The notes beneath the pieces are model-generated. The model searched no databases and was not told the DNA's origin. It was given only the letters and a program-made list of their open reading frames with translations. Shown here one piece after another: positions 13,272 to 36,662 of a DNA stretch of 36,727 nucleotides. Numbering within the stretch: the stretch's first letter is position 1; the number at the start of each line of letters is the position of its first letter. A program made the translations under genes and the position numbers. This stretch comes from a virus (taxonomy: Duplodnaviria; Caudoviricetes), in the IMG/VR virus record IMGVR_UViG_3300034006_000006, positions 1 through 36,727 of that record; one strand, written 5' to 3'.

Positions 13272-13272
13272 A

Positions 13273-13810: not shown

Positions 13811-13822
13811 CTGTAATTCATC

Positions 13823-20598: not shown

Positions 20599-20610
20599 CG
20601 TTTCACCTCG

Positions 20611-21228: not shown

Positions 21229-21232
21229 TTAC

Positions 21233-22456
21233 TTAAACGACATTCACTGTCACGGTCACAAGCTTCGGCAGCTCATACGGCGCAACCTCTATATCAGCCA
21301 CAGGCTCGGCCAGAATCTCCCCGCCGGGCTGTGCCTCTATACGCCTGACTCCCTTTGTGCCTTCGATCACGGCGATGATCTCGCTTCTGGAGATGGTGCG
21401 ACCGAAGTTTTCCTCACGTGCGGAATAGAAATCCCTTAGATTTAATTCTATGGCCGCCAGCGTCGCGCTCTGAGTTATCAGGCCGTCGAGCTTTACATCG
21501 ACCTCGATATTGAACTCAACGAATTCCGGATCGCTGACGCTGATAAAGATGCCGCCGACCCATTCATTAGCCTTCTCTCTGGCCAGCGCTTTTACTTCGT
21601 CTGAGAAGGCGTGGCCGGTGCTCGTCATCATTACCACCGTGACGTAACCGGCCGTGGTCTTAATTGAGCCGTCAAGATTCAGCCAGTCGCCCTCTTTAAT
21701 TTTGTCGAAGACTTTGACTATACCGTTGCCGAGCAGCACCTCTTCCAGTATCGCTTCCTGTAAATCCTTCGCATTGACTATCCGCTCACCCCTGCGCTGA
21801 TAATGACGTACCCTCTCCAGAACAGCTTCTAAAGTCTCAGCGTCAGAGCCGGATTCAACTGCGTCAGGATTAGTTACGGCAGTGACGTAAAGCAGGGCAT
21901 CCACAATCCCCGTCACCGTGCCGGGAGCCAGCCTCACGCTGCCTGATGCCGTAGAGGTGGCCGAGACAGCCCCTTCCATTTCGCCTGCGGGAATCACCAG
22001 CTCTTCGTCGGTCGCAAAGACAGAGCCGTTTGTGGCGCGCGCTTCAGTCCCTGCCGGGATGATGACGTCAACTCCAGGAGGAGCAGCAGATGTAAAGAGC
22101 AGAGTAGTAGTAGCAGGTGTGGCTTCTCTCAGCTCTGCCCTGAAGAGGCGCGCAAACTCTATAACGTTCTGCTCCGGTACCTGATTGATGGCGCGCGTTA
22201 CGAAGCTGACGAGCCATGCAAAGGTCTCGATTAAGACTGTCTGCGGGCTGCCAGGCTCGGCATTTGTCAACTCCGCGCAGACTGGCGACGTAGGAAAGGT
22301 GCCAGCCAGCAGCATCTGCTTTGCCTCGAAGAGAACGGCAATATAGCGGTCGCAAAGTTCAGGCGTGAGTGCGCCGGAAACGCGCGCAATCGCCTGCGCC
22401 GCGAGAAGGTCTTCGTTTCGCACGTCCAGCATCGGTGCCTGAATAAGTTGTGCCAT
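21233..22456 (-). CDS. baseplate J-like wedge protein
   Basis: ATPATTTLLF…IPAGT…FATD…VTNPDAVESGSDAET…RIVNAKD; typical J-family pattern and position. Confidence 0.9.
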   Translation of the reverse strand: MAQLIQAPMLDVRNEDLLAAQAIARVSGALTPELCDRYIAVLFEAKQMLLAGTFPTSPVCAELTNAEPGSPQTVLIETFAWLVSFVTRAINQVPEQNVIEFARLFRAELREATPATTTLLFTSAAPPGVDVIIPAGTEARATNGSVFATDEELVIPAGEMEGAVSATSTASGSVRLAPGTVTGIVDALLYVTAVTNPDAVESGSDAETLEAVLERVRHYQRRGERIVNAKDLQEAILEEVLLGNGIVKVFDKIKEGDWLNLDGSIKTTAGYVTVVMMTSTGHAFSDEVKALAREKANEWVGGIFISVSDPEFVEFNIEVDVKLDGLITQSATLAAIELNLRDFYSAREENFGRTISRSEIIAVIEGTKGVRRIEAQPGGEILAEPVADIEVAPYELPKLVTVTVNVV

Positions 22457-22459
22457 CGA

Positions 22460-22897
22460 TTAGCTCCCAGTGAATTCAGGGCGAAGCTTCCACGCCGGGT
22501 AAACCATGCTGTGAGGCGTATTCGAGCCTCTTATCGTGTAAATAACCAGCAGCGCCGCTTGCTGCTGATCCAGAGAAAATTCTTGTATGAAGTTGCCATT
22601 TTCCAGAAAGCCCGGCCGGACGCTTATTGAAGAGATAATGGGCAGGTAATCCTTAACCTGCTCCTCCAGCTCGTAAGCCAGACGGGCCAGCCAGCCTGCG
22701 TCTGCTACCTGAAAGGTCGGGTCAGTTATGCCGTAGTCGGGAACCAGCACTCTTTCATAGCGCCGCGTCTCAATCAGGTCGGTTATGAACTGTCGAGCCA
22801 TCTCTTCCGGATCCGAGACAGTGGCCAAGCTGCCACGCGCATCCACGCGGAAAGGGAAAGAGAGGCATGAGCCGTGAATGCTCTTTACGGTCGCCAT
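22460..22897 (-). CDS. gp25/gpW-like baseplate (sheath initiator) protein
   Basis: LSFPFRVDARG…LIETRRYERVLVPDYG; start moved to the ATG at 22897 (TAATG overlap). Confidence 0.88.
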   Translation of the reverse strand: MATVKSIHGSCLSFPFRVDARGSLATVSDPEEMARQFITDLIETRRYERVLVPDYGITDPTFQVADAGWLARLAYELEEQVKDYLPIISSISVRPGFLENGNFIQEFSLDQQQAALLVIYTIRGSNTPHSMVYPAWKLRPEFTGS

Positions 22898-23439
22898 TAG
22901 ACAGCCCCCAGACAATTCATAGCGGTTTCGAGCCGCGAAGCCTGCGATTCCAACTCGCCGAAATACTGGTTGTAGCGCTCAATGAGCTTCGATTCAGTCC
23001 GGGTGCGAAGCTCTTCCGGGATGCTTTGCAAACCTGTTCTGAGTTGTTCCAGCTCTCCCATTCTGGCGTTAACGAAATTGATTCCCGCCTGTAACTCTTC
23101 AGTGACCTCCGCCACCGTCGCAGTTATTGCATTAACCATCGTCGCTATGTCGGCGGTGATTCGTACAATCTCTTCTGCGAAGCCAGCCGCGCGCGGTGGA
23201 TTGTCGAGCTGTCCGATGGTCATAGTGATGATTCGCTGCTCGTACTCTTTTTTCTTCTGCCGCAGATGATTGAGCCTCAGTATGTCCGGGCGGTTCCCGA
23301 AATTCCTGCCGATATAAGTCTGCCCGTCGCCGGAGAAGCAGCCGACAAAAGGCACGTTGATTGATGGAGCGTTAAACTCGCTCTGGATCGTTGGCACCTT
23401 CGCCGGGAGCCTTTGAATCTGCCCTGCTGCTATGCTCAC
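22897..23439 (-). CDS. hypothetical coiled-coil protein between spike and gp25
   Basis: 180 aa, coupled on both sides, helical C-terminal two-thirds, no PAAR motif. Confidence 0.65.
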   Translation of the reverse strand: MSIAAGQIQRLPAKVPTIQSEFNAPSINVPFVGCFSGDGQTYIGRNFGNRPDILRLNHLRQKKKEYEQRIITMTIGQLDNPPRAAGFAEEIVRITADIATMVNAITATVAEVTEELQAGINFVNARMGELEQLRTGLQSIPEELRTRTESKLIERYNQYFGELESQASRLETAMNCLGAV

Positions 23440-23924
23440 GCGCCACCCCCATCATCCACAGGACTGAAGATCAATCCGGCCGCTCCGCTAATCTGAACAG
23501 TCCCAAACTCGCTTTTTATGAGAACCCTGCCAGCCTGAAGCATTAGGTCACCTTCGCAGATAATCTTCAGGTCGCACGGGTATCTCAAGCAGGCGACACT
23601 TTCATCCGGAACGTCTTCAGGTAACGCCCCGGCCTCGTTGAATTGAGTCGTGTAGAACAGCTCATGCTTTCCGCCGGCGCGGCTCCACAGCGCCACCTCT
23701 ACGCCCCTCTGGGGAATGCTCGCAAAGCCATGCCCCTGCCTGCTGATGCTTCCGGGGAATGGTTTTATCCACTTTTCGCAGACCTCCGTTTCGCTGACGG
23801 CCGGGATGAGGACTTTAACCCTCCCGAGGTGTAGCGGGTCTTCATTGTCGGCGACGATGCCGTTCAGGCCATTAGGTAGACCAGACCGTCCGTCATCGTC
23901 TAGTTGTTCTGCCCTGCGGTTCAT
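23436..23924 (-). CDS. baseplate spike, gpV/gp5 OB-fold
   Basis: GIVADNEDPLHLGRVKVLIP…W…G…IPQRGVEV, followed by short beta-repeats. Confidence 0.88.
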   Translation of the reverse strand: MNRRAEQLDDDGRSGLPNGLNGIVADNEDPLHLGRVKVLIPAVSETEVCEKWIKPFPGSISRQGHGFASIPQRGVEVALWSRAGGKHELFYTTQFNEAGALPEDVPDESVACLRYPCDLKIICEGDLMLQAGRVLIKSEFGTVQISGAAGLIFSPVDDGGGA

Positions 23925-25053
23925 TTCTATTTCTTCTCCTTCTTCTCACTCCCGCAATATCACGCTTCAGTGTAAGTTCACAGCTAAACTCAGAAGGGCC
24001 AAGCGTATAAACGGCTTCTCTTACAATGTACTTTCCGCTATATAACGCACCTATGTTATTTAGTAGAACCGTATCGCCTTGAAACAACGGTATGCTGTTT
24101 TCAAGAAACTGAGGAAGTAGTTTGATGCGGTGTTCAAATGCGGATTCGCGTTGATTATAGCGGCGTGACCGTGCGCGGCGTCTCGCCTCTCTTTGTGTTC
24201 TAGTCGGTAAGTCTTCGGTCACATAGGATTGAGTTCCGCGCTCCGCTTCGCTTCCGTCTACGCCAGAAATACGACTGCCCGCCCGTCCCCTTGCTCTTAC
24301 TTCAACTCGCCCCTGACGACCTCTTTTATTTTCAGGTAGCTTATAAGTAAGGCTGAAACCGCGAAGCATTACAAAATCCCCGTTGTCACCTTTATATGTA
24401 AGGCTAGCTACAACTGCTCCCGTTCGTCCAGCTTCTTGCGCGTAAAGCTTATTACCGTTTGTGTACAATCGAAGCCCAGAGCGACGGGCGGCTTCTCTAG
24501 CAAGCTGCCAATCTGTTTGCTGAAATTGAAGGATTACGTCATGCTCTGCCGAGTCCGGCACGTTTCCGTTAATAACAAAGTCAAGGTCATGCTCTTTAGC
24601 GAGCTTTCTTAGCAGGTTAAGGTCTGTCGTTTTGTTGTGATACCTTGAATGCTTGCGCTGCTTCATCTTGTTAGATAAATCGTAGAAAGTGAACGTAGCT
24701 ATGTTGTTACTCCAAGAGTGGCGCGTAAGCATTCCCTGAAAAAGCGGGGGGAGTGTCGTCGGTTCATCAGAAGGCGAGCGATTAGATGCTAAAGTTCTGC
24801 GCGTTTGGTCGTGTGCTGTAGTTATAAATTCGCCTGCACCTATCCAGATTTTCACGCTTGACTTTTTCACGCCTGTAGAATCTAGGTGCGAATCAGTAAA
24901 TCGAAACTCAGGGTCATAGACGCTTATATTCGCCTCGCTTGAATGGTCTGTGCTTAGCTCTACCGACACTTGAGTAATAAGGCCGGGGTGCTTCCAAGAG
25001 TCCAGCAGTACATCATTCAATAAAACGAGTGTGTGTTTTTCTATTAGCGCCAA
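23893..25053 (-). CDS. baseplate hub, gpD/gp27-like (cassette-borne copy)
   Basis: LFQG…DLSNKMK…LAKEHDL…QFQQTDWQLAREAARRSG…GDTVLLNNIGALYSGKYIV; directly upstream of the spike. Confidence 0.87.
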   Translation of the reverse strand: MALIEKHTLVLLNDVLLDSWKHPGLITQVSVELSTDHSSEANISVYDPEFRFTDSHLDSTGVKKSSVKIWIGAGEFITTAHDQTRRTLASNRSPSDEPTTLPPLFQGMLTRHSWSNNIATFTFYDLSNKMKQRKHSRYHNKTTDLNLLRKLAKEHDLDFVINGNVPDSAEHDVILQFQQTDWQLAREAARRSGLRLYTNGNKLYAQEAGRTGAVVASLTYKGDNGDFVMLRGFSLTYKLPENKRGRQGRVEVRARGRAGSRISGVDGSEAERGTQSYVTEDLPTRTQREARRRARSRRYNQRESAFEHRIKLLPQFLENSIPLFQGDTVLLNNIGALYSGKYIVREAVYTLGPSEFSCELTLKRDIAGVRRRRRNRNEPQGRTTRR

Positions 25054-25080
25054 GAGGTTTATCTTTCCTTTACTTATAAC

Positions 25081-28000
25081 TCAGCTTCGCTCGTCATATT
25101 TCGCCTCTATATATCGCATCCGGCTTTCAAACTCAGCGAACAGTTCATCTTTGCTTTGGTCTAGTAGTTGTCGAAGCTTCGCTACCGATTCAGCATTTTC
25201 TTTAGAGCTTCCCGTAAACGTCGCGTTAATGTTCGGAGAGTAGTTCAAGTTAACTTGCGGTGCTGTAAAGCTGCCAGAAGGAACCGAAGACTGATTGACG
25301 TAAGCTGCCTCTGAGTATGCAACCTCTCTTAAAAGCTCCCTACCTCTTAACGAGCTTGTGCTGGGTAGATTTAACTCAGGTCGGTTTCGGGGAATCGTTA
25401 ATGCTTGATTGCTTCTCTTTCTGTCGGCATTAAGAGCGCGAGTCGATACCACAAACTTCTGTAGTTCATCGTTTGGAGTAACGAAGCCGTTAGCGTTTGG
25501 AGTGAATAGCTCAACGCCGCGCTCGCCTCCGATGTAGTCAACGCCTTTAAGAACTCTCCCGCCTTTAGCAAAGTAGCCGCCGAAAGGTCTAACGTTCGGA
25601 GTGCTGCTTGTCTGATTTGAAGGCGTTGGAAAAGCGGGGAACGTTGGTCGCTCTATGACAATAGAATTTACTCTGTCGGCTAAACTCTGAGCAGCCGAAG
25701 AGACGTTCCTGAATGCGGGGGGAATCTTATTAGCAGGGTCAACGCACTGGCCGAAAGCGTCTGCGGTCTGCTTGGCAGGCTCGGTAATACGGAGCAGGCT
25801 TTGTGCAAATTCCGGCATCCCCTGTAATCTTTTCTCGTCAAGCTGTTTGAGGTTGCCTATGCCAGTATTAGGAAGCGAGTTGATGAATACTGCTTCTATG
25901 GCTCGCTTTATGTTCTGCTGTCCCTCAGAAGATAATCCGAGTTGTGGTAGCTCGGTCTGAATAAAGCTTTGTCTTACATCTGGAATAGCTAGTTGAGGCG
26001 CGAATCGTTGAAGCATCTCTCTGTCTGTAGGTAGCGGCCCGTTACCATAAAAGGGTCTTGCTAATTTTCGATAAAGATTATTCTCAAACTCTTTAACAGT
26101 GAATATGCCTTCTGCTCTGCTGAGTTCGCCGCCGCGTGTTAGAGCCTCACGAACAGAACGCGCCGACGCTGCATAGTCAACGCTCTCCCCTCTCTCTCTC
26201 CTTTGTGTAATGTCTGCTAGCTGCGCGCTTGCGCCCCGCTCTACTCCTAATTGCTGCCTGTAGGCTTGCACGTTCTTGTAGCTTGCGAATGCACCGCCAG
26301 CAATAGCCATGATGCTAAAGGTCACAGGATTAGTAGCAAGGCCAGCAGCGCCGACAGCGCCCCGACCTATCAGACTTGCTCCGCCCGCAGCTACTTCCGA
26401 GTTGATGCCTCCGCCGCCACTTCCACCGCGTAACATACCGTTGAAAATGCCAACTCCGTCTGCGGCCTCCGCGCTCGCTTTACCTAAGCTTAGTATGCCA
26501 ATCAGGGCTGCGGCTGTTGTGGGGTTATCCGCAGACATAGCTTGAAGGCTCTTGATTTGATTTGATAGCTGCTCTGCTACGTTTCCGCCTAATGACATAA
26601 CGGGAGCGCCAGCCGCAGCCCTCGCATTCGTTTGTGAGGCTGTAAATTCTAAGAACTGTCCGAGCGGGTTTCCCCTCTCGAACATTGAACTATAAAAGCC
26701 CTCAATATCAGGAACTCTCATATAGTTCTGCGTCTCTTTGTCTAACTGCCTCCGCATGAGCATCATCTGTGCTACTTCACGCTTTGCCGTGCGGTTGCCG
26801 AACATCACTTCTAATTGTTTGGCTACAGCTTCTACGTTCGTAGTGTCAACGCCCTTCCTATCGAAAGCAGCCATTAACTTATCTGTGAAGATAAACGGGT
26901 CACGGCCCATTCCTTCGGCTATAGGGATAGCGCCGGGAAGCAGACGCGCAATCTTGCCCTGTTGATTGAACTCAACTTTTGAGCGGTCAAGCAGGCCCAT
27001 CTCACCCCAGTATTTAAGTTTATGTGCGGGGATTTGCCCGCCGACAACTGAGCTATAAAGAGAGGTGAGAGCAGTTCCGGCATTCTTGCCGCCCATTTGC
27101 TGGATAAGCGGCATAAACTTCATTATACCTTCCGGCGAGAACTGCATACCTACAATCTGACCCTGTTTGACGAAGTTGCGAAGCTCCGAAGGATTGACCT
27201 CTCCACCCGTAGCCAGATTTGATTGAGCTATGAGATTCAAATACTGCTTAGCGGTAGCGGTATCAATATCCTTGCCCATGAGTTCGACGGTTTTAGCGGC
27301 ATTGCTGAACGCTCTAATAGCCTCTTGACGGCCTACCCTGTCGCCGTTTAGCGCCTCTGTGGCTGCTAGGAATTTAGAGGCTTGAGGTAGCAACGCTATA
27401 GCATCATTAACGCTGCCCATAGTGCCCGTAAGGTTCGTGAGTAGTTCCGTCACGTCTACCTGACGCACGCCCCTTATTTGAGATGTTACTTGCTGTACTG
27501 CCTGCAAACCTCTGGCCTGCTCAGCTTGTGGATAGTTGAGCATTTGAAAATTGGTCTGTGCGCGTTTGAGTTCAAGGGCAGGGTCAATGAAGCCGCCCCT
27601 TACCATGTCATAGGTGCGTTGTGCAACATAACCGATATTGCGAGCCGTCTGCACTCCCCTGTTAAATCTGTCTACGTTGTCGTAGTCGCCGGATGCGCGC
27701 CGACCTCTGCGGCCTGTGCGTCCAGTCGCTCTAGCTGCTTCACGCTCTAAGCGTGCGCGCTCTCTTAGCAGTTTAATATCTGCTATCTCTGCGGAGCGTT
27801 GCGCGCCAGTGGCCCGCGCTTTGGTTTGAGTAAGCCTAGCCTGCTCACGTTCTAAACGAACGCGGTCTTGCATCAGCTTGACTTGCTCACGCACGGCGCG
27901 AGTCTCGCGGTTTAATGCTGTAGTAGTAGCTCCGCTCTTTGGCAGAGCGCTCTTAGGCAGGCTGCTATTAGGCTTTAGTTTGTTGAGCGCTCTTTGAAGT

Positions 28001-28119
28001 GATGTTGCCTCTTTATTCGCGCCGCGCAGTTGCTTAGTGAGAGCAGAGATACGCTTCTCCGCTTGGCCTTGAACCAAGAATTGAAGGATAAGCTTGTGTG
28101 TTTCAGAGCCTCTAGCCAT
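25081..28119 (-). CDS. tail tape measure protein (cassette copy, 1012 aa)
   Basis: Long Ala/Gly-rich helical protein with hydrophobic segments, C-terminal FAKGG…GERGVELFTP motif and NLNYSPNI; follows a chaperone gene. Confidence 0.85.
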   Translation of the reverse strand: MARGSETHKLILQFLVQGQAEKRISALTKQLRGANKEATSLQRALNKLKPNSSLPKSALPKSGATTTALNRETRAVREQVKLMQDRVRLEREQARLTQTKARATGAQRSAEIADIKLLRERARLEREAARATGRTGRRGRRASGDYDNVDRFNRGVQTARNIGYVAQRTYDMVRGGFIDPALELKRAQTNFQMLNYPQAEQARGLQAVQQVTSQIRGVRQVDVTELLTNLTGTMGSVNDAIALLPQASKFLAATEALNGDRVGRQEAIRAFSNAAKTVELMGKDIDTATAKQYLNLIAQSNLATGGEVNPSELRNFVKQGQIVGMQFSPEGIMKFMPLIQQMGGKNAGTALTSLYSSVVGGQIPAHKLKYWGEMGLLDRSKVEFNQQGKIARLLPGAIPIAEGMGRDPFIFTDKLMAAFDRKGVDTTNVEAVAKQLEVMFGNRTAKREVAQMMLMRRQLDKETQNYMRVPDIEGFYSSMFERGNPLGQFLEFTASQTNARAAAGAPVMSLGGNVAEQLSNQIKSLQAMSADNPTTAAALIGILSLGKASAEAADGVGIFNGMLRGGSGGGGINSEVAAGGASLIGRGAVGAAGLATNPVTFSIMAIAGGAFASYKNVQAYRQQLGVERGASAQLADITQRRERGESVDYAASARSVREALTRGGELSRAEGIFTVKEFENNLYRKLARPFYGNGPLPTDREMLQRFAPQLAIPDVRQSFIQTELPQLGLSSEGQQNIKRAIEAVFINSLPNTGIGNLKQLDEKRLQGMPEFAQSLLRITEPAKQTADAFGQCVDPANKIPPAFRNVSSAAQSLADRVNSIVIERPTFPAFPTPSNQTSSTPNVRPFGGYFAKGGRVLKGVDYIGGERGVELFTPNANGFVTPNDELQKFVVSTRALNADRKRSNQALTIPRNRPELNLPSTSSLRGRELLREVAYSEAAYVNQSSVPSGSFTAPQVNLNYSPNINATFTGSSKENAESVAKLRQLLDQSKDELFAEFESRMRYIEAKYDERS

Positions 28120-28135
28120 TAGCTACACTACCTCT

Positions 28136-28783
28136 TTAATTAGCCGCCGCTTGCGCTACCTCTTCATTTTCGGCTGCTTCGTTGAAGCTGTCAGAGTAAC
28201 GGAGCGATGTTTCGCGCAGGGCTAAAATATCTACCATGTCCATCTCTTCCAGAACGGTCATAGGTAACGGGCAGGGAAGAGAGAGCGCTCCGTCTTGAGT
28301 GGTAAAACTGATAATCTCTTTTCGGAGTAAGTAGCAGACACGTTTCATTCCCGTATAGCGTTTGTCGTCTGCTTCAATCTCATCAAAGCCTGTAAGTAAG
28401 TAGCCAAACTTAGCGACGTTGTAAATAGAGCCGTCACGCTCAATTCCAAAAGCGAGTCTGACAGTATCATCAGAGATTATTTCAACCTCGCGCTCTTTTG
28501 ACGTTTCGCGTATGAAGTCCTCATACGCTTTAACAAGCCGTTCCCTGTCTATTGAAACTAAAGAAAGAAAAGCCTTCATAGGGAAAGGCTCTTTTAGCTC
28601 TCCAAAGCTCACAGTCGCCGCCCGATAAAACGGTAAGTCTGTCACCGAAGGGGTCAACCCTTTTAACTCTTCGTCAATCTCAAACAGGTCGCGCCCCTTT
28701 ATACGTCGCCCTATCGTGGCGCTTTTATGCTCTTTGCCGTTCTCGTCAGTGTACCCTCTGAGAAACTTGACCGATTGCTGCAT
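28136..28783 (-). CDS. tail assembly chaperone, tandem gpE/Mu gp41-like domains
   Basis: Two similar halves (VKFLRGYTDENG…IKGRDLFE…LSLVSIDRERL / VRLAFGIERDG…LTGFDEIE…LEEMDMVDILAL); directly upstream of the tape measure. Confidence 0.65.
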   Translation of the reverse strand: MQQSVKFLRGYTDENGKEHKSATIGRRIKGRDLFEIDEELKGLTPSVTDLPFYRAATVSFGELKEPFPMKAFLSLVSIDRERLVKAYEDFIRETSKEREVEIISDDTVRLAFGIERDGSIYNVAKFGYLLTGFDEIEADDKRYTGMKRVCYLLRKEIISFTTQDGALSLPCPLPMTVLEEMDMVDILALRETSLRYSDSFNEAAENEEVAQAAAN

Positions 28784-28834
28784 TGTTCAACTCTCCCTGC
28801 GTCAATTTTCTTTTTTCGACTCGTATAAAAGACA

Positions 28835-28872
28835 AGAAGCCCGCGATGCGTTTAGTGCATCAACGGGCTTCT
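28835..28872 (-). terminator. leader terminator/attenuator hairpin upstream of the chaperone gene
   Basis: AGAAGCCCG…CGGGCTTCT stem followed on the minus strand by TGTCTTTT. Confidence 0.6.
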
Positions 28873-28898
28873 ATTGAGCCTCTTAGGATTGCTATTTA

Positions 28899-28958
28899 GG
28901 CGCTCTACTTCGGCGCTCTATGTGAAGTGGATTATATCAGAGAAGCTTGCTTTGTGAA
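28899..28958 (-). promoter_or_regulatory. sigma70-type promoter plus tandem TAGAGCGCC repeats (candidate Com box)
   Basis: Minus strand: TTCACA (28958-28953), 16 nt, extended -10 TGaTATAAT (28939-28931), then TAGAGCGCC twice (28920-28912, 28907-28899). Confidence 0.55.
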
Positions 28959-28970
28959 GAAATATTTTTC

Positions 28971-29348
28971 CTATTGAAACGCTACTGTGATGTTCTCGAT
29001 TCTCCATATAGAGCTTTCTCTGGTTAGCGCGATAATGCTTTTCCCGCCGCATTTCCACTGAATCACAACCTCTGCGGATTCATGTATGACGGTTTCGTTT
29101 ATTATCTCAAACCCTTTGCCTTCACATTCCAGATAAGTCTTACGGGTAGCAGCCGAAAGCGCCCTTAAACCTGCTACCTCTTGACTCTTGGTAGCGCTTG
29201 AAGAGTAGTATTGAATAGAGCCTTCGATATTCCCTTGCTCAAGTTTGCCCGCCCAGCCCTTCACAGTGTCAGAAGGAGAAGACAGAGAACCGCAGGCAAT
29301 AATTAGAAGGCAAAGGGGAATTGATATAAAACTATGCGGGCGAGCCAT
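28971..29348 (-). CDS. lipoprotein, NTF2-like (DUF4878-like)
   Basis: Lipobox LIIAC, SPSDTVKGW, terminal LTRESSIWRI. Confidence 0.7.
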   Translation of the reverse strand: MARPHSFISIPLCLLIIACGSLSSPSDTVKGWAGKLEQGNIEGSIQYYSSSATKSQEVAGLRALSAATRKTYLECEGKGFEIINETVIHESAEVVIQWKCGGKSIIALTRESSIWRIENITVAFQ

Positions 29349-29366
29349 GCGCCGAAAGGTAGCACA

Positions 29367-29567
29367 TCAGCCCTTTTTCTTTCCAGCTTTCTTAGTTGAC
29401 GGTCTGCCTGCCTTGCGATTCTCTACTAGCTTCAAATCCTTCTCGTCTATCACATAATCGCGGCCTATCTTTTGGGCAGGCAAGCGCCCTTCACTTATTA
29501 ACTGATAAATTCTTGGTTGGCTAATACCTAGCCGCTCGGCAGCTTGTTGAGTGGTGAGTAAGTTCAT
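29367..29567 (-). CDS. excisionase-like HTH DNA-binding protein (probably leaderless)
   Basis: LLTTQQAAERLGISQPRIYQLISEGRLPAQKIGRDYVI; GRP tail. Confidence 0.9.
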   Translation of the reverse strand: MNLLTTQQAAERLGISQPRIYQLISEGRLPAQKIGRDYVIDEKDLKLVENRKAGRPSTKKAGKKKG

Positions 29568-29574
29568 GCGGCGG

Positions 29575-29658
29575 ATTATAAGCCAAAATTAACCCTATGA
29601 CAAGCCATATTATTTTGTTGACAAAACCCTATGATGTATCATAGAATAATCCCTAAGT
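29575..29658. promoter_or_regulatory. divergent promoters with repeated operator-like sites
   Basis: Minus: TTGTCA-17-TATAAT (29603-29575). Plus: TTGACA-18-TAGAAT (29618-29647). AACCCTATGA at 29591 and 29625; ATCCCTAAG at 29649. Confidence 0.7.
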
Positions 29659-29682
29659 TAGTCACACGAAAGGGCGAATCAA

Positions 29683-29889
29683 ATGAGCAAACTTGAGCAG
29701 GCAAAAAGCAAGCTGCGGTTCATAGGCAGAACGCTTAACAGGGGATTCATAGACGCGGAAACCTTAGAAGAGTTGAGCCGCGCATCATTCAACGCGCTTG
29801 AGCTATTAAATGAGCATGAAGAGGAAACCCTACAGCTTCCCCGCATAGCTGAGGCTTCCACTGTTGTCATTTATCAGCCGAACGCATAA
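29683..29889 (+). CDS. hypothetical protein
   Basis: First ORF after the plus-strand promoter; AAGGG RBS. Confidence 0.6.
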   Translation: MSKLEQAKSKLRFIGRTLNRGFIDAETLEELSRASFNALELLNEHEEETLQLPRIAEASTVVIYQPNA

Positions 29890-29894
29890 GAAGC

Positions 29895-29930
29895 GAGAGC
29901 TTAGGAAAGCAGCCACTTCCCTAAGCTCTC
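29895..29930 (+). promoter_or_regulatory. intergenic hairpin (attenuator/RNA structure)
   Basis: GAGAGCTTAGG…CCTAAGCTCTC, 11-bp perfect stem. Confidence 0.55.
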
Positions 29931-29961
29931 ATTCACCATTTACCACTTGAGAGGGGTAACG

Positions 29962-30582
29962 ATGAGTAGAAAAGATAACACAAGCAACAAGGCGCTTCAA
30001 AGCGATGCGCTTTTAATCTTTAACACAATCCACGACAAGGCCACCCCAAAGGCCATACGGGAAGAGATAGGATACTACGCTGACGACGTACTTAACATCT
30101 CTCCGCTTGTCCCTGACCTATGGTCAGACAGGGAACTTTTTGTCGCGTGCTTTGTTGACGGCATGAAGAGGGCCACGGAGGAACCTTACACTTATAGCCG
30201 CGATACGGTTAGAGAGATTGTAGAGAGCCTTAAAAAAGGCGAGACGCCCGAAGAGATAATAGCCAGATTTAATGAGGCTCGAAAGCGTGTCGCATCGGAG
30301 CGACTTAACGCGCCAGAGCCTAAAGATAAGTCTTCAAACGACTGGCGCGTCTGGAAAGTCCGACAACTTGAACGCGCCTTCAATGGCACAGACGCCAAAG
30401 CCTACGATGCTGCTTGGACTGAATACCAAGCCTTGCTGCGCGGTTTGGTTAGTGACCGTCAGTTCTATCACGTCTCATACGCTCTAGCCTTACTGCCTCA
30501 TCTGCTCGCGGCCCGTCAAGAGATAGACGCGACGATTGCCCGCGAAAAGCGGTCTAGCCAGAAGAGAGGGGGTAAGAAGTAA
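29962..30582 (+). CDS. hypothetical helical protein
   Basis: ATG after GAGGGG; coupled to the next gene. Confidence 0.65.
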   Translation: MSRKDNTSNKALQSDALLIFNTIHDKATPKAIREEIGYYADDVLNISPLVPDLWSDRELFVACFVDGMKRATEEPYTYSRDTVREIVESLKKGETPEEIIARFNEARKRVASERLNAPEPKDKSSNDWRVWKVRQLERAFNGTDAKAYDAAWTEYQALLRGLVSDRQFYHVSYALALLPHLLAARQEIDATIAREKRSSQKRGGKK

Positions 30583-30911
30583 TGGCTCCGAGAAAAGAGG
30601 CGGCAAAGCCTAGAACTCGCGCTAAAGCTGCGGAAGACAAAAGAGAAGGCTTGCATTTAACCTACGATGAAGCGAAGCGCCTTATCTCAACTCTTCCCTA
30701 TATGAGCATCGAAGGCGACGGGGCAGTAGCGACACTTCTGCTGCTCATGTATTCAATGGTCTATCCGGCTGACGGTGCTAGCTATGCGAAGCCCGAAGAC
30801 CTTTACCATCTAGTCTCTACAGAGCTTTTGTCATTGACGAGCGCCTTAGACGCTTTACATAAAATAATGAGGCGTCGGCTGTCTGCTATTGAGAAAGGAG
30901 CGGCACAGTAA
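30582..30911 (+). CDS. hypothetical protein
   Basis: TAATG coupling, basic N-terminus. Confidence 0.6.
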   Translation: MAPRKEAAKPRTRAKAAEDKREGLHLTYDEAKRLISTLPYMSIEGDGAVATLLLLMYSMVYPADGASYAKPEDLYHLVSTELLSLTSALDALHKIMRRRLSAIEKGAAQ

Positions 30912-31054
30912 TGCACAAACACCTCTGCTCTCGCTGCCCTCGCCAGTTTGAATGCTCAGAGTCGGCCTGTGCTGAGTTTGAATTTTCAATCTGTTCTGAG
31001 TGTAAGGATAAAGCTCAGAAGAAGAAGCAGAAGAGACGTAAGAGAGCATAACCT

Positions 31055-31082
31055 AGAAGGCGGCTACCCGACAGCCGCTTCT
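31055..31082. terminator. hairpin upstream of the HNH gene
   Basis: AGAAGGCGGCT…AGCCGCTTCT imperfect stem. Confidence 0.4.
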
Positions 31083-31101
31083 CTCAAAACTATTTTGAGT
31101 C

Positions 31102-31413
31102 ATGCGCGACCCCTTACTACATGAGACACGCAAGAAGTGGAGAGCGTTTCGCCGCTACATAGCCATGCTGCACTACGGAGCGCGGTGTGTATGCTGCGGT
31201 GAAACGCTCTCTATAGCTCTCACTTTTGACCATGTAGAAGGCGGGGGATGCAAGGAGAGAAAGCTTGCAACAAGAGCTATCACGGAGGGCTACCCCGCTC
31301 GCTTTCAAGTCCTCTGCATGAACTGTAATCACGCTAAGGCAGACAACGGGAAATGCCCGCATCAGGTAATACGAGAATTGGAACATAAAATATTTTTGAG
31401 TCACCTGAATTAA
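31102..31413 (+). CDS. HNH endonuclease
   Basis: CVCCGE…LTFDHV…QVLCMNCNHAK. Confidence 0.8.
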   Translation: MRDPLLHETRKKWRAFRRYIAMLHYGARCVCCGETLSIALTFDHVEGGGCKERKLATRAITEGYPARFQVLCMNCNHAKADNGKCPHQVIRELEHKIFLSHLN

Positions 31414-31425
31414 GGAAGAGACAAG

Positions 31426-32469
31426 ATGAGACATTTAGTTTCAGAAGCAGAAAGACTTGAAATCGCCAGTAGGTTTGAATCGAAAGAAAGCGTTTCAAAT
31501 ATAAGCGGCGTTATGAAGCTATCTTGTGCGACTATATATAATCAATTAGCTAAAATGGGAATTGCGCGCCGTCGCTGTGGGTTCAATGAAACCGAGCTAC
31601 AGAAGATATGCGATGAGTATGCCAGTGGAAAGTCAGCAGAGGTAATTGCCAACAACATAGGCGCGTCAAGCTCTTCTATTCTTGGCGCTCTCAAAAGATG
31701 CGGTATTTCACCACGCACAGCATCAGAGCAAGAACAATATCGCAACCGCAGAAAACATAATCTTAACGAAAACGCTTTCGACAAACCATCAGAAGAGCGG
31801 AACTATTTCATAGGGTTAATGATGGCCGATGGATGCGTAGTAGAGAGCAAACAGGGTCTAGGCCAGCGTAGAATACAACTTGCCCTTAACGAAGAAGATA
31901 AAGAAATAGTTGAGCGTTTCAAGTCTTTTCTTTCCTCCACGCATACTATTTGTTATCAAAAAGCGAGACTATCAAGACACGCTCGCCGCCCGAACGAATT
32001 TATAAACTGCCGCCCGCATGTTGTATTTTCGGTTAGCTCTGATAAGCTCGCACAAGCCCTTATCTCATTCGGCGTAGTACCGCGCAAGAGCAAGACCGCA
32101 AGCGTTGTGGGGCTGGAAAATGACAGACACTTTTGGCGCGGTGTCATAGATGGTGACGGTTCGTTAGGGGTTCGCAAGCAGAAAGGCAGGCGAACATCTA
32201 GCCCTAGACTAACTCTCGTTGGCAGCCACGACCTAATGCAGCAATTTATTGAATTTGCTAAACGGAATGCGCCCGGAAATCAAGTCAAAGTTTGCTGCTA
32301 CGATGGATTGTACAGAGTTGATTTAACGGGGATTTATGCTATTCAAATTTGCAAGGTAGTTTATCAAGGGTCTAAGGTTTCAATTTCCAGAAAGCTAGAG
32401 ACTGCTAATTCGATAATAAAACTTGAGCATGAATGGAAACCGAGGTATAGAAAGCGGATTACACAATAA
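31426..32469 (+). CDS. LAGLIDADG homing endonuclease with N-terminal HTH repeats
   Basis: Two motifs, YFIGLMMADG and FWRGVIDGDG; GVVPRKS; terminal SRK; two HTH-like repeats N-terminally. Confidence 0.9.
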   Translation: MRHLVSEAERLEIASRFESKESVSNISGVMKLSCATIYNQLAKMGIARRRCGFNETELQKICDEYASGKSAEVIANNIGASSSSILGALKRCGISPRTASEQEQYRNRRKHNLNENAFDKPSEERNYFIGLMMADGCVVESKQGLGQRRIQLALNEEDKEIVERFKSFLSSTHTICYQKARLSRHARRPNEFINCRPHVVFSVSSDKLAQALISFGVVPRKSKTASVVGLENDRHFWRGVIDGDGSLGVRKQKGRRTSSPRLTLVGSHDLMQQFIEFAKRNAPGNQVKVCCYDGLYRVDLTGIYAIQICKVVYQGSKVSISRKLETANSIIKLEHEWKPRYRKRITQ

Positions 32470-32486
32470 CTTACGAAGTGACATTC

Positions 32487-32663
32487 TCACTGTCGCCTCA
32501 CTTCAACGGTAGACGAACGATTAAAGCCGCTTGACTTAGTAATGGTATTCAGCTTTTTACATCCTTGCTTTCGACACTTGAGGCGCAACGTGCCTGTAAA
32601 ATCAAAATCTTCGCTTGTTTCAGCAAGGATTTTACCGCAGGCTTTACACTTGATTTCTTTCAT
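32487..32663 (-). CDS. Mu Com-like zinc-finger regulator (58 aa, not in the ORF track)
   Basis: Manual translation: MKEIKCKACGKILAETSEDFDFTGTLRLKCRKQGCKKLNTITKSSGFNRSSTVEVRRQ, matching the Com pattern IxCxxCGKxLA…KCxxxCKxxN. Confidence 0.75.
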   Translation of the reverse strand: MKEIKCKACGKILAETSEDFDFTGTLRLKCRKQGCKKLNTITKSSGFNRSSTVEVRRQ

Positions 32664-32711
32664 TGGATGTTGTTGCTATTAAATTACCCTTACCGAACTT
32701 CGGCCTAATAG

Positions 32712-32777
32712 CTAGTCGAACGTGACGCCGTTTATCTCCACCACGTAATGATGGTCGTCAAGAAAGCCTTCGCTCAT
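32712..32777 (-). pseudogene. 5' stub of the resident baseplate hub (gpD-like) gene
   Basis: ATG overlaps the LysM stop (ATGA); MSEGFLDDHHYVVEINGVTFD* aligns without gaps to the cassette hub N-terminus LIEKHTLVLLNDVLLD; sits where the hub is expected. Confidence 0.65.
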
Positions 32778-33025
32778 AATGAATCGTAAAGCCCGCTCTC
32801 GACGGGAGCCTCCGGAATAAGCAGAATCGTGCCGGGCTCGAGCCTGCGCGGGTCACTGATGTTGTTCCTGTCGGCTATCTCGCGCCAGAACCTGCGGTCG
32901 CCCCAATACCTGTGACAGATGCCGTCTATATTCTCGCCGAAAGCCACGACGTGTATTTGAAGGCGCTCCTCGGCCTGAGGATTAAATTGGCCGTATCGCC
33001 TGAATGGACTGATGCTCTTTCCCAT
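32774..33025 (-). CDS. LysM / gpX-like baseplate protein
   Basis: HVVAFGENIDGICHRYWGDRRFWREIADRNNISDPRRLEPGTILLIP. Confidence 0.9.
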   Translation of the reverse strand: MGKSISPFRRYGQFNPQAEERLQIHVVAFGENIDGICHRYWGDRRFWREIADRNNISDPRRLEPGTILLIPEAPVESGLYDSL

Positions 33026-33546
33026 TAGAAATTCCCAAGCGGCGAGAAGTCCGCCGCTTCTTCCGGGTCTATCTCTACAACTCTGGACGTGACCTGTTCC
33101 CTCAGGTCAGGCATTTCAAGCAACGTCATCGAGACGCGCGCACGCTGCTGGTTGTTCTCCGCAGTAAAGCTCGTGCGCTCGATCTCCAGTTCTTCAAGCG
33201 TGCAGCGCACCTTCCAGTCGCCGCATATCATCAACAGAAGCGGCGGCCTTCCTTTTTCCTTCTGCCTCATCAACGCGCGTATCTGCTCAATGGCTTCTGT
33301 CAAAGAAAGATTTGTACCGACCGTGTCCAGCCAGCACTCGTCGAAAGAAATTTTCTGAGGCTCGGAGTTTGAGAACTGTGGGGGCTTTACTCCGCCGACG
33401 GTGTCGGCCAACTCCCAGTTATTCCTGTCCGAAGTCTTAATGCTGGAAGGGAAGGGGAGTCCCACGTCGCCCTCCTCGACGTCAAAGACGAAAGTGCCTG
33501 ACTGGCGCAGGTTGATGAGAATCAGTTTTTTGCCCTTGCGTGTCAT
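33025..33546 (-). CDS. gpU-like tube initiator / tail protein
   Basis: FPSSI…KPPQFSNSEPQKISF…PPLLLMICG…LEIERTSF…RARVSMTLLE; between tape measure and LysM. Confidence 0.78.
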   Translation of the reverse strand: MTRKGKKLILINLRQSGTFVFDVEEGDVGLPFPSSIKTSDRNNWELADTVGGVKPPQFSNSEPQKISFDECWLDTVGTNLSLTEAIEQIRALMRQKEKGRPPLLLMICGDWKVRCTLEELEIERTSFTAENNQQRARVSMTLLEMPDLREQVTSRVVEIDPEEAADFSPLGNF

Positions 33547-36500
33547 CAGCTTCTCTCGTCGTCTCTCTCTTCCCTGTAATACAGCCTTGTCTCCAGTTCC
33601 TCGAAGAAATCATCCTTGCTGCTGGCCAGCGCCCGCTCGGCGGCCGCTTGTGCCAGGGCCTGTAGCTGTGCAGGGCTGTGATTGCTGCCCGTAATTTGCA
33701 GGCTGATGTGGGGGGCAAAGGTTATAGGGCCAATCGACTTAGAAGAAGGAGTAGAAGCGTTTACATATAACGACTCTCTACTTGAAACACCATCAGCGCT
33801 TCTAGCTGATAAAACGGGGATTTGATTGCTTCTCCCGTCGGCGTCAAGAGCGCGAGTCATTACCAGGTACTTCTTTAGCTCATTGTTCGGAGTGATGAAT
33901 CCGTCAGCGAAAGGCGTATAGAGTTCGATACCGCGCTCGCCTACAGGGTAAGAGATGCCTTTGAGCACGTGCCCGCCCCTTGCTTTTCCCGGCCCCGTCG
34001 TTGGATGTGTAGCCCCGCCAACTATTGAACTTACATTCGGGATAGTCCACGCAGGCGGAGTAAGGTCTATAGCATTCATCCTGTCGGCAAAGCTCTGCGC
34101 TGCTGTAGCGCCGTTGCCAAGTGCAGGCGCGAGTTTCAATGCGGATTCTGTATTTTGATTGAGAGCTTCGCTTGCCTTTTGGGACTGTTCGGCTAGTAAG
34201 TTGGTAGCCTCTCCATATTTCTGAGGGAAAGCCTGCTTGACTAAATTTTCGAGATATTGTTTGCCTTCGGGTTGAACGTCCTGACGCGCCCTTGTTTGAC
34301 GTATGAACTCAGCCATAACACCAGCGTCTGCACCTAAAATCGGTGCACGCTGGCGAATCAGCGAAACCTTATTTGCATCATCAGCGCCGTAGAAAGGATG
34401 GTAGTCAGGAAGTATTCCCGCCATGCGCAAGGGATATAGGATCGGTTGAGCGCCTAAGTATCCCTGTGTAATTTGCGTCAATAGGTCTTCCCCGCGTGGG
34501 ATATTGAGAGCGTTCATTAAGAACTCACTCAATCCACCACGCATTGAGCCTGCTAGCGAGCCTTCAATATCAATCTTTGAAACAGCAGATGCAGCTTCAG
34601 AGGTTATGAACTGGCTTGGCATGGGCATGCCCGCTTCAGCATATTTCTGCTTTAACCTAAGAAATCTATCAGCGTCCTTTGCATTAGAGCTCATCAAATC
34701 TTTGTAGATTTTATGGTATTCCCTGTAGGCGTCTACGAACTCTTTCAACTCATACAGCGTGTAGCCCACAGAAGCGATAAGCAACGTAAACTGCATTGTC
34801 TTGGGTAAAGCATTAAGCTTGCCCATGACTCCGTTGACTCCGATAGCGCTACGTTCGGCTGCCGTCATCCCTTCCGCTGCGGCTTTAGCACCGCGACCCC
34901 AGCCCGAAAACATTCCAGCGAGGCCTCCGAGATGGTAAGAAGTCTCAAGGATTCCCGTCAGAGCTTTGCCGCCAATAAGGAGATAGAATCCCCACTTTGC
35001 CAGCGTCGGGTGCTGCTCGAAGACGGCCATCAGTGCGCTGCCCTTATCAACCAGCTTCGTTACAACCTCCAGCAGCTTCACCCCCTGCTCAGCCTGAAAA
35101 TTAAAGAGCGCGGCCTGAAATTTCTGATACTTGCCCATGGGGGACTGGTCTGCGCGCTGGTACATCTGCTCCAGTCCTTCAGACCTTTGCATCTGCTCCA
35201 CGTCTTTAGAGATGTTCTGTCTGAGCAGAATCATCTTTGCGAGCAGGTCGGCCGTGCCTCGATTGCCGGTTATCTGAGAGAGCACGCGTCCTACATCTCC
35301 GGCGTTAGTCATATCCACCGGCCGACCCAAGACGTTTTGTCCCTTCTCTTTAATTGCCTTAGCCAAAGCATCCGCAAACTTGATTGGATTTTCGCCCAGC
35401 AAATCAGCAATCGGGAGTGCGCCGGGGCTAAGCTTCTTGATTCTGCCTTCACGCGAGAACTCTGCAAGACCCTTAGTGCGCAGCACATCATTGGAAGGTA
35501 GAAGCCCGAGGCGCTGCAAAGCGTCGGCAGCGCGTGCGCCGCCTGCGCCCTGCCGGAAAGCCACGAATGACTGAAACGCGCTCATCAAGCGGGTGCCGAC
35601 GGCGGAGCCTCCCATGGCCTCCATCATCGATGCCATGTGCATCAGGCCCTCGGGAGAGACGCCCATAGCGGAGACGCCGCCGCGCCCTACGAACTGGAAC
35701 ATCTCTTCGCCGCCGATTCGGCCGCCTGTGTAAGCTTTAATTCGTGTGATAGCGTCTAGGTAAGCCTCAAACCGTTTTGTGTCCACGCCGCCGCCCGGAA
35801 GCTGGCGTATAGCGCCCATCTGCTCGAGCGCTTTCATAGTCTTCAGGATGTCGGCTTCGAGTTGTTCCGGATCGGCTTCAAAGAGCGTCTGGAAGGTGAA
35901 TCGCATCTTCCCGGCTGTAGGCAGCATAGCTGTAGCCTGCCTCATATCACCGAAGACGCTCTTTAATCCGACGAGGTCTTCCGTCAGCTCGTCTATGCGG
36001 GTGCCGCGCACTTGGCGGACAGTATCAGCGACGGCTCGAAGGCCAGCCGTCGTATCTTCAGGGGATAAGCGAAGTGTGTATAATTTCTGTTGTGCCCGGA
36101 TAACAGAAAAGGCCGCGTCAGTATATTTCTCCAGAGAATCGATGCGGTCGCGCCACGTCGAGGCCACCATCCGGCCGGACATGTATGCGTCGCCCGCGCG
36201 TCCTGCCCGGTCAAGGAATCTAGATGCTCTGCCGGGAGTTCGTCTGGTTTGTTCTTCTCTGTCTCTTTCTGCGCGCTGGGATCTGAGGAAGTCGTTAGCG
36301 GCGCGGCGTGACTCCTGATTTCTTACTCGAGCCAGACGACGAGCTGCAACATCCCTAACGCTCTGCTGCGCGGCAGCCTGCCGAGCCGTCTGCTCGCGTA
36401 TACGCTGTGCTTCACGCGCCGCCCGCGCCTCTTCACGCGCCGCACGTGCGCTATCGCGTGCGGCGCGTGAGGTAGACGGAGAAGCGCCCGGCGGCGTGAC

Positions 36501-36662
36501 TCTTGTGGAGTTTAATTTGTTGAGATTTTTAAGAAGGGATTGAGCCGCTTTGTCGGCTGCACGCAGATGCTTTGTGATGGCTGCGAGACGTTTTTCAGGC
36601 TGTCCCTTGAGTAGGAACTCCAGAATTAACTTATGCGTCTCTGAACCAGCTCTTTTTGCCAT
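33546..36662 (-). CDS. tail tape measure protein (resident copy, 1038 aa)
   Basis: Helical, Ala/Arg-rich, hydrophobic segments, C-terminal ARGG…VGERGIELYTP; coupled to the gpU-like gene. Confidence 0.87.
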   Translation of the reverse strand: MAKRAGSETHKLILEFLLKGQPEKRLAAITKHLRAADKAAQSLLKNLNKLNSTRVTPPGASPSTSRAARDSARAAREEARAAREAQRIREQTARQAAAQQSVRDVAARRLARVRNQESRRAANDFLRSQRAERDREEQTRRTPGRASRFLDRAGRAGDAYMSGRMVASTWRDRIDSLEKYTDAAFSVIRAQQKLYTLRLSPEDTTAGLRAVADTVRQVRGTRIDELTEDLVGLKSVFGDMRQATAMLPTAGKMRFTFQTLFEADPEQLEADILKTMKALEQMGAIRQLPGGGVDTKRFEAYLDAITRIKAYTGGRIGGEEMFQFVGRGGVSAMGVSPEGLMHMASMMEAMGGSAVGTRLMSAFQSFVAFRQGAGGARAADALQRLGLLPSNDVLRTKGLAEFSREGRIKKLSPGALPIADLLGENPIKFADALAKAIKEKGQNVLGRPVDMTNAGDVGRVLSQITGNRGTADLLAKMILLRQNISKDVEQMQRSEGLEQMYQRADQSPMGKYQKFQAALFNFQAEQGVKLLEVVTKLVDKGSALMAVFEQHPTLAKWGFYLLIGGKALTGILETSYHLGGLAGMFSGWGRGAKAAAEGMTAAERSAIGVNGVMGKLNALPKTMQFTLLIASVGYTLYELKEFVDAYREYHKIYKDLMSSNAKDADRFLRLKQKYAEAGMPMPSQFITSEAASAVSKIDIEGSLAGSMRGGLSEFLMNALNIPRGEDLLTQITQGYLGAQPILYPLRMAGILPDYHPFYGADDANKVSLIRQRAPILGADAGVMAEFIRQTRARQDVQPEGKQYLENLVKQAFPQKYGEATNLLAEQSQKASEALNQNTESALKLAPALGNGATAAQSFADRMNAIDLTPPAWTIPNVSSIVGGATHPTTGPGKARGGHVLKGISYPVGERGIELYTPFADGFITPNNELKKYLVMTRALDADGRSNQIPVLSARSADGVSSRESLYVNASTPSSKSIGPITFAPHISLQITGSNHSPAQLQALAQAAAERALASSKDDFFEELETRLYYREERDDERS

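Follow-up and report, generated by a model that had tools for sequence, protein, structure and literature searches.

A nuclease-bearing cassette with a second tape measure protein and the only complete baseplate hub of a probable phage-plasmid

One tape measure protein (TMP) per tail is the textbook rule. The tail locus studied here, in a 36,727-nucleotide stretch of tailed-phage DNA (IMG/VR record IMGVR_UViG_3300034006_000006; the whole stretch is called the window), encodes two, both as intact, full-length open frames. The second, TMP2, lies in a cassette of ~8.8 kb with low GC content at third codon positions (GC3), which cuts the resident baseplate hub gene at codon 21 and supplies the sole complete hub of its family found in the genome. 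The resident hub gene is left as a stub only; a second predicted tail assembly chaperone (TAC2), TMP2 and the new hub run into the spike and baseplate genes, and resident TMP1 stands upstream with the sheath, tube, tube initiator and LysM genes. The most likely reading, held at even odds, is that this cassette has swapped the tail core in cis, so that the phage would now build its tails on the imported TMP2 and hub. The features that carry the argument are as follows, with G146 denoting the closest relative.

33546..36662, minus strand: TMP1, resident tape measure protein, 1038 amino acids, after the resident chaperone TAC1 and its frameshift extension (contig C45)
33025..33546, minus strand: tube initiator (gpU-like, Pfam CIS_tube), resident, 76% identical to G146
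32774..33025, minus strand: LysM baseplate protein (gpX-like), resident, 84% identical to G146
32712..32777, minus strand: resident hub stub, 21 codons then stop, 16/21 amino acids identical to the start of the intact G146 hub
28136..28783, minus strand: TAC2, 215 amino acids, 37% identical to TAC1, named by position and homology
25081..28119, minus strand: TMP2, imported tape measure protein, 1012 amino acids, its own chaperone and hub alongside
25423..25563, minus strand: 141-bp box encoding the GERG motif, shared by the TMP2 and TMP1 genes, 72% identical to 33837-33977
23893..25053, minus strand: replacement baseplate hub (Mu gp44 / T4 gp27 fold), with the right junction at the spike gene start
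18556..23924, minus strand: spike (gpV), a 180-amino-acid open reading frame (ORF), gp25, baseplate J, gpI and fibre genes, resident, directly downstream of TAC2-TMP2-hub

Gene names such as gpU, gpX, gpD and TAC follow common usage, as do the parts ascribed to the chaperone in its short and extended form.

The original prediction had placed two TMPs at the ends of the interval 25081-36662, and ORF coordinates confirm both, at 1012 and 1038 amino acids. All ten of the motifs that it quoted were located at the expected places, and both proteins end in DERS. TMP1 and TMP2 align end to end (BLASTP, 30% identity over 1085 columns, E 2e-97), and their genes stand 5.4 kb from each other around the inserted cassette. 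The original prediction noted neither this spacing nor the chaperone and hub that accompany TMP2. The N-termini are shared, as had been claimed (64% identity over residues 1-45, TMP2 numbering); identity then falls to 30% (46-170), 34% (171-555) and 30% (556-640), and the C-terminal part passes from 26% (641-845) through the GERG box (60%, 846-905) and 33% (906-980) to 47% over the last 32 residues. The further claim that divergence is greatest in and after the hydrophobic segments stands in part: the 26% minimum does follow the hydrophobic stretch, but the remaining body is almost as low (30-34%). The hydrophobic segments are themselves weak, with best 19-residue Kyte-Doolittle means of 1.24 and 1.41.

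Misassembly is unlikely, since the whole region recurs without differing letters across sequencing runs. In two runs that are possibly the source of this DNA, the stretch 22500-36727 lies on a single 36,787-bp contig, and a third run of low coverage contributes eight short pieces over TMP2, the chaperone, the cassette and TMP1; each gave zero letter differences. An assembly chimera was rejected on the strength of the same contig in two runs and the matching pieces in the third.

Both proteins are TMP-family members, as predicted, on the combined grounds of gene slot, the G146 orthologue and profile links. TMP1 occupies the canonical slot (TAC1 on contig C45, TMP1, CIS_tube tube initiator, LysM, hub). 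TMP2 sits between TAC2 and the hub, and its 81%-identical orthologue is the sole TMP of G146, in the canonical slot. Profile searches assigned neither protein to any non-TMP family: Pfam gave no match for either, PHROG gave only weak matches, for TMP1 (phrog_3779, E 0.0025), and a PDB sequence search with the TMP alignment returned coiled-coil noise only. A profile of the TMP2 clade reaches proteins of which 6/45 scanned match TIGR01760, together with a cluster named 'phage tail tape measure protein', and alignment A3 gave a weak match to a PF10145-positive TMP (probability 86%).

The difference of just 26 amino acids between TMP1 and TMP2 corresponds to about one tube ring, using the ~1-1.6 A per residue implied by a study of satellite tails (PMC12987554). 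A length switch, already discounted in the original prediction, was rejected on this basis. TMP2 is under purifying selection. Its ratio of nonsynonymous to synonymous substitution rates (dN/dS) against G146 is 0.135 over 893 codons and 0.08-0.22 per 150 codons along the first 900 codons, compared with 0.05-0.26 for resident tail genes, a measure that spans the time since the phages split and not the time since the cassette inserted. The relaxed selection that would have spoken against a working second copy was thus not seen for TMP2. What is not supported in the form given is the view of the pair as paralogues differing in the membrane segment: the TMPs come from different clades, with resident-like ends, and the second is cassette-borne. 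Because the bodies (26-34% identity) fall in different clades, the swap would cover the whole TMP body and not just a membrane part. Tandem duplication of TMP1 was rejected on the same difference in clade and on differing composition.

Stub, composition, hub divergence and junctions together argue that TMP2 is cargo of an insertion that also replaced the hub. The alignment of the stub to the G146 hub breaks at ~32714, the left junction, and resumes at the spike gene. Cassette genes have a GC3 of 0.40-0.55, resident structural genes 0.61-0.75, TMP1 excepted (0.56), and the window hub 0.42 against 0.66 in the G146 hub. That hub is 51-54% identical to its G146 counterpart, compared with 76-96% for neighbouring genes and 85-96% for resident gpV to gpJ. 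Its fold is confirmed by an AlphaFold model (predicted local distance difference test score, pLDDT, 81.8), which Foldseek links to hubs of contractile injection systems, to Mu gp44 (1wru, E 2e-17) and to other myophage hubs.

The relative G146 offers a single-TMP comparison. It has one TMP, a native hub and no TAC2, and its TMP stands behind a related cassette with Com-like, helix-turn-helix (HTH) and lipoprotein genes, located between chaperone and TMP. Overall this TMP is 81% identical to TMP2, as noted, and its last ~100 residues are 63-69% identical to TMP1 and 31-32% to TMP2; the change from TMP2-like to TMP1-like sequence falls just past the 141-bp box common to the two window genes. With a TMP2 body, a TMP1-like end and a native hub, G146 looks like the outcome of a two-TMP state resolving to one. 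Scans of IMG/VR returned one contig only, with cassette proteins identical to those of G146 and counted as the same phage; other scans were empty.

Phylogeny separates the two bodies. The TMP2 core groups with G146, P0003, G063:C198, L093/P0004 and G368 (SH-aLRT, the Shimodaira-Hasegawa-like approximate likelihood ratio test, 99), a clade whose members are cassette- or satellite-borne TMPs, and the TMP1 core forms a separate clade with P0006-P0017. The C-termini behave differently across related elements that carry two TMPs (described below). Over the last 30 residues, the best match of the extra TMP among 38 is its own phage's TMP in 5/6 elements (4th in G278), where the core ranks for the same six are 14, 4, 3, 28, 34 and 1; G446, whose resident TMP is cut by a contig end, was omitted from this test and from the length test. 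For the window the TMP1 C-terminus is the nearest match of TMP2 (47%, rank 1 of 38). In G419 the extra TMP has no hub of its own, and its C-terminus is 90% identical to that of the resident TMP, with cores at 25%. Over 26 TMP-hub pairs, hub similarity follows that of the final 30 residues of the TMP (Mantel rho 0.47; 0.46 after controlling for the core) more closely than that of the core (rho 0.26), figures that are descriptive, since the pairs are kin and non-independence overstates significance. G146 and G419 point to the last 30-100 residues as the part that would match TMP to hub.

These comparisons suggest how the cassette could work. Recombination with a related phage or a satellite would have brought it in, and homing by its LAGLIDADG and HNH nucleases may help it to spread. 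TAC2 would coat TMP2, and the TMP2 end would dock on the cassette hub. If, as we infer, hub and TMP C-terminus have to match, the new hub would pair better with TMP2 than with TMP1, which would be displaced in part or entirely. TAC2 lacks the kind of frameshift extension that lies open in the shifted frame after TAC1, and would need the resident extended chaperone along with the resident tube, sheath and tube initiator; no library match was found for TAC2. The result would be a chimeric tail like that of the cholera satellites discussed below, made from the phage's own genome and near-unchanged in length, and the benefit would be a new ejected TMP body on an unchanged tail, allowing escape from TMP-targeting defences or exclusion. 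The two-TMP state could then resolve to a single TMP, as in G146.

The original prediction preferred a swap of the membrane-interacting part, with mixed oligomers possible. Extended to the whole body, that idea has both TMPs in use, yielding particles of two sorts, or with mixed trimers, whose tails are nearly equal in length but eject different TMP bodies, as a hedge against exclusion or TMP-sensing defence; we regard it as somewhat improbable. It draws on two intact TMP genes, each tied to essential late genes, on the TMP1 end being the nearest match of TMP2, on both hubs being intact in G143, G278, G341 and G368, and on the small length differences within elements (mean 52 amino acids versus 123 over all pairs of 30 TMPs; permutation p 0.01 among non-independent kin). 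Yet this genome has a single complete hub, G146 manages with one TMP, and mixed coiled-coil trimers seem doubtful at 26-34% body identity. PLE11 virions, moreover, exclude the helper TMP and hub when the alternative set is there (PMC12987554).

The arrangement recurs. Our census covered 27 same-family genomes with this tail type, namely that of the window (G000) and 26 chosen by hub or chaperone match; hub matches occurred in 31 other genomes, weak partial matches were dropped (G003, G061, G086, G087, G282, G382) and G312 was added, and G063, with several TMP pieces on short contigs, is not counted among the two-TMP genomes. Two TMPs in one element were found in 7/27 genomes (G000, G143, G278, G341, G368, G419 and G446). 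Leaving out the unpublished genomes G143 and G013 gives 6/25, and 4/5 in the C-terminus rank test. Both TMPs are complete on one contig in five (G000, G143, G278, G341, G419); the cut TMP of G446 is the resident one, and the G368 pair is inferred across two contigs of a genome where a single close sheath and a single strong tube-initiator match were found.

Each of the seven extra TMPs is an open frame of full length. A hub follows in 5/7 (G000, G143, G278, G341, G368), a chaperone accompanies 4/7 (G000, G143, G341, G419), and tube initiator or LysM genes stand beside the extra TMP in 0/7. Extra TMPs and hubs that could be paired have dN/dS values of 0.095-0.28. The insertion sites are a hub gene, gp25, a minor head gene (twice), a Mu transposase gene and two sites between neck genes. 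Six of the seven cassettes have a clear nuclease and G446 a weak one, with TnpB, HNH or LAGLIDADG types in five sister cassettes. Related cassettes also carry defence cargo: Shedu-like in G368, TIR with a transmembrane part in G143 alone, and a type ISP restriction-modification system with TIR in G063.

A wider reading, which we put forward tentatively and below the cis swap itself, is that cassettes driven by nucleases have repeatedly invaded Pyrinomonadaceae phages, installing a second tail core (chaperone, TMP, hub) whose ends match the resident and whose body is foreign. The phage would switch or hedge between two ejected TMPs against TMP-targeting defence or exclusion, possibly cassette-encoded, and the satellite chimeric-tail trick would here be played by an in-genome selfish element.

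A neutral account is somewhat improbable in our judgement: a homing-nuclease cassette would have co-converted tail genes from a sister phage, TMP2 coming along since the new hub needs it, and the duplicate would be transient and without benefit. The near-universal nucleases fit it, as do stubs with a fresh copy at the hub (G000), gp25 (G368) and MuA (G341), the split minor head gene of G419, the abundance of the core cassette without a TMP, and nuclease-mobilised islands with tail cargo on record (PMC10448857). It has more difficulty with an intact 3-kb TMP as repeated cargo at seven different sites, some of them well away from the tail operon (in G341 the left end of the prophage, in G419 and G446 head genes), where co-conversion would not require a TMP. 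The absence of tube initiator and LysM from 7/7 modules, moreover, matches the gene set of the cholera satellites and not a random flank.

Several results tell against the cis swap. The hub stub has no excess decay; the insertion may thus be so young that intact frames are no proof of maintenance. TMP1 is intact and without decay (dN/dS 0.17 against G146 over its last 102 codons), and the match of its end to TMP2 makes it quite possible that TMP1 works with the new hub. Hub similarity is followed by the first 40 residues as well (rho 0.58), so part of the end-matching may be shared lineage and not physical fit. TIGR01760 is matched by 16/30 members of TMP alignment A5 but by neither TMP1 nor TMP2. 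Sister TMP cores within one genome occur in G368 only (82%), which is not a body swap. The extra hubs fall into more than one clade, and in G000, G143 and G341 they stand beside hubs of their own lineages at 100/100; a single monophyletic mobile hub module was rejected on the hub phylogeny. Defence-family searches, in which Rta (see below) was not used as a query, found no TMP-targeting inhibitor among the cassette ORFs. Finally, the zinc-finger gene of four sister cassettes, part of an HTH/zinc-finger/nuclease core, occurs in 37/401 genomes, and 0/20 stretches around the core or the 68-amino-acid gene, outside known two-TMP loci, had a TMP, chaperone or hub. The cassette is therefore a general carrier, of which the TMP may be a passenger, and an obligate link between cassette core and TMP was rejected on the same 0/20.

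The closest published parallel is a set of Vibrio cholerae satellites. PLE11, PLE1 and PLE4 carry a chimeric-tail module of TAC, TMP and the hub BhuB; PLE11 swaps chaperone, TMP and hub into virions, shutting out the helper TMP and hub, and Rta, a linked inhibitor of the resident TMP, is described only in PLE11 (PMC12987554). The window module resembles these in having the same TAC, TMP and hub without tube, sheath or tube initiator, in an alternative TMP that is distant from the resident one (20% in PLE, 30% here) with a small length change, and in a hub that is more similar than the TMP (41% in PLE; 54% here, to the G146 native hub). It differs in that PLEs are genomes in their own right, packaged apart from the lytic phage on which they act in trans, whereas this module lies in the phage's own late operon; the cassette has also reduced the resident hub gene to a stub and yielded no identified Rta-like inhibitor. 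With no integrase or replicon, and providing the phage's only hub, the window module is not a PLE or satellite.

Two further systems come from one source (PMC10448857). Putative E. coli satellites described there share a TMP and hub without other tail genes, and are stand-alone integrative elements with capsid genes, unlike the phage-embedded module. Islands of homing endonuclease genes (HEG-islands) likewise have interchangeable LAGLIDADG, HNH or TnpB nucleases by essential tail genes, and essential cargo exchanged among related phages. There, the essential loci lie between flanking nucleases, as far as described; here the nucleases are one-sided, the ORFs past the hub (spike through fibre genes) having yielded none, and the resident TMP persists intact beside the imported one.

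Acidobacteriota counterparts of the E. coli TMP-hub satellites, to the extent that these are described, may be seen in two loci that look like true satellites. In G253 (L060:11250-19104, G253:C17), TAC, TMP, hub and spike lie beside small-terminase-like, Rep, relaxase and coupling-protein genes, and no close sheath or tube initiator was found in this 100%-complete genome; L093 has a small-terminase-like gene, TAC and TMP. A metagenome scan returned L093 and one distant locus. TAC2 and the TMP2 core group with such satellite-like elements, TAC2 with the chaperones of G253 and L093 (SH-aLRT 88), which would suit a satellite that once inserted into its helper, shed integrase and replicon, and survives as a module with no distinct role now. 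We consider this very improbable. The hub is of the resident lineage and now essential, and no integrase or Rep was found in the cassette; the idea would also explain origin and not present function, and is compatible with a cis swap.

In the literature covered, from which supplements and most subscription papers fell outside, so that this is not proof of absence, we found no phage with two full-length TMP genes; matches to 'two tape measure' were chaperones, peptide matches or two different prophages. The in-phage two-TMP arrangement is real, recurrent and not found in print, and the chimeric-tail trick has so far been shown only for cholera-phage satellites. If the cis swap is true, the seven natural TMP pairs would form a test set for the question raised by PLEs, how a tail chooses between two TMPs, and would also bear on the residues by which TMP and hub are matched. 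They would show, too, how phages could plausibly exchange an essential gene that defences target, by way of a two-copy intermediate.

The remaining cassette features, from the left junction towards TAC2, are as follows.

32487..32663, minus strand: Com-like zinc-ribbon ORF, 58 amino acids, first cassette gene, with no Pfam match itself
31426..32469, plus strand: HTH-LAGLIDADG endonuclease, 347 amino acids, counter-oriented (phrog_4645, E 4.5e-41; LAGLIDADG_3)
31102..31413, plus strand: HNH endonuclease, 103 amino acids, counter-oriented (phrog_2255, E 6.6e-9)
29683..31051, plus strand: four counter-oriented ORFs without assigned function, 68, 211, 109 and 46 amino acids
29575..29647, unstranded: divergent sigma-70-like promoter pair, 11/12 consensus matches each
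29367..29567, minus strand: HTH_17 (excisionase-type) regulator, 66 amino acids, E 5e-14
28971..29348, minus strand: predicted lipoprotein, DUF4878-like, 125 amino acids; beside TMP2 in G146 too (77% identity, dN/dS 0.18)
28781..28958, minus strand: leader region ahead of TAC2, with a promoter-like site (28958-28931), then a small hairpin, then a long terminator-like hairpin

The homologue of the Com-like ORF in G063 (29% identity) has a weak Zn_ribbon_Com match. The 68-amino-acid ORF has a 57% counterpart in the G146 cassette, and an Atlas search gave no usable match for the 211-amino-acid ORF. Library profile scans of the cassette ORFs found no integrase or Rep gene; in PADLOC, 8/9 cassette accessory genes had no match, and the HTH gene matched generic regulator models only. 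Sigma-70-like sites overall (8) are no more numerous than in shuffles (7.9). The terminator-like leader has a z of -4.3 and a similar arrangement before the G146 TMP a z of -2.5, with the small hairpin conserved in G146. The leader (28781-28958) is a possible attenuator or antitermination site that would control the baseplate genes along with TMP2; that the Com-like gene takes part would be a guess.

The lipoprotein gene directly upstream of TAC2-TMP2 recalls Ltp of phage TP-J34, reportedly a lipoprotein of TMP-targeting exclusion, but is DUF4878-like and has no Ltp or Tab family match. Tab is part of a second TMP-targeting system, Tab/anti-Tab of phage JBD26, which protects itself by anti-Tab and not by a second TMP (PMC10884400). 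Together, Tab and Ltp supply a selective reason for changing the TMP body.

The same leader and defences raise the idea of a decoy, in which TAC2 and TMP2, expressed in the carrier cell from a cassette promoter, would keep related phages that enter the cell from assembling tails. The promoter-like site inside the cassette and the terminator-like leader before TAC2 are in keeping with this, as is a TAC2 without tube-linking extension, and TMP-dependent tail assembly is a known defence target (Tab, PMC10884400; Rta, PMC12987554). We rate it as improbable, since G146 has no TMP other than the TMP2 orthologue, the hub adjoining TMP2 is the phage's only one, and full length with purifying selection over the first 900 codons exceeds what a decoy needs.

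The window is nearly all of contig C44, which with C45 would form a 66,843-bp circle; each contig starts and finishes with the same repeat, the circle having a 161-bp inverted repeat, and the join is inferred from overlaps. C45 encodes terminase, major capsid, scaffold, sheath and tube proteins (PHROG matches), a portal named by position, and TAC1, which leads through the repeat into TMP1. C44 holds the rest of the contractile tail with Rep-like, AAA ATPase, tyrosine recombinase and Mob_Pre relaxase genes and an E1/E2/JAB cluster. The element is a contractile-tailed phage, likely a phage-plasmid of ~67 kb. Its host family is probably Pyrinomonadaceae (a soil bacterium), the name given in the titles of public records with TMP2 relatives.

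Plasmid functions occupy 463-8394 and 10428-16312 of the window (ParB-like, E2, JAB, ThiF, Mob_Pre, tyrosine recombinase, Rep-like, AAA), the AAA gene being 100% and Rep 92% identical to G146 counterparts. The 161-bp inverted repeat, 98.8% identical at both ends of C44 and C45, breaks the assembly; one copy encodes the TAC1 frameshift extension and the other, in the early region, is fused to a different ORF. Inversion between the two would part TMP1 from sheath, tube and TAC1. The 56 kb of G146 that were covered show no such inverted repeat. Exactly three copies of the palindrome CTCAAAA-NNN-TTTTGAG are present in the genome, each of them on C44 (8929-8945, 16440-16456 and, in the cassette, 31083-31099), with a degenerate form at 31384; the palindrome is also found just ahead of the G146 TMP and is a candidate phage repressor operator.

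Among sister loci, the cassette of G419 (L079:2910-12301, G419:C17) interrupts the minor head (gpF-like) gene and supplies no replacement, a sign that either the gene may be dispensable or the prophage impaired. Loci of the small zinc-finger gene (L139-L158) seldom place it beside HTH and TnpB genes and are often in chromosomal settings. The chaperone-TMP gap is a cargo hotspot of this phage group, as in L028 (G063:C198), L086 (G368:C873) and L084/L071 (G333), holding type ISP restriction-modification, TIR proteins, toxin-antitoxin-like genes and nucleases. A further locus, L032:4560-13118 (G038:C2), is an island like a phage-inducible chromosomal island, with integrase, AAA_25 primase/helicase, siphovirus-type TMP (TMP_3), small-terminase-like and NlpC/P60 genes.

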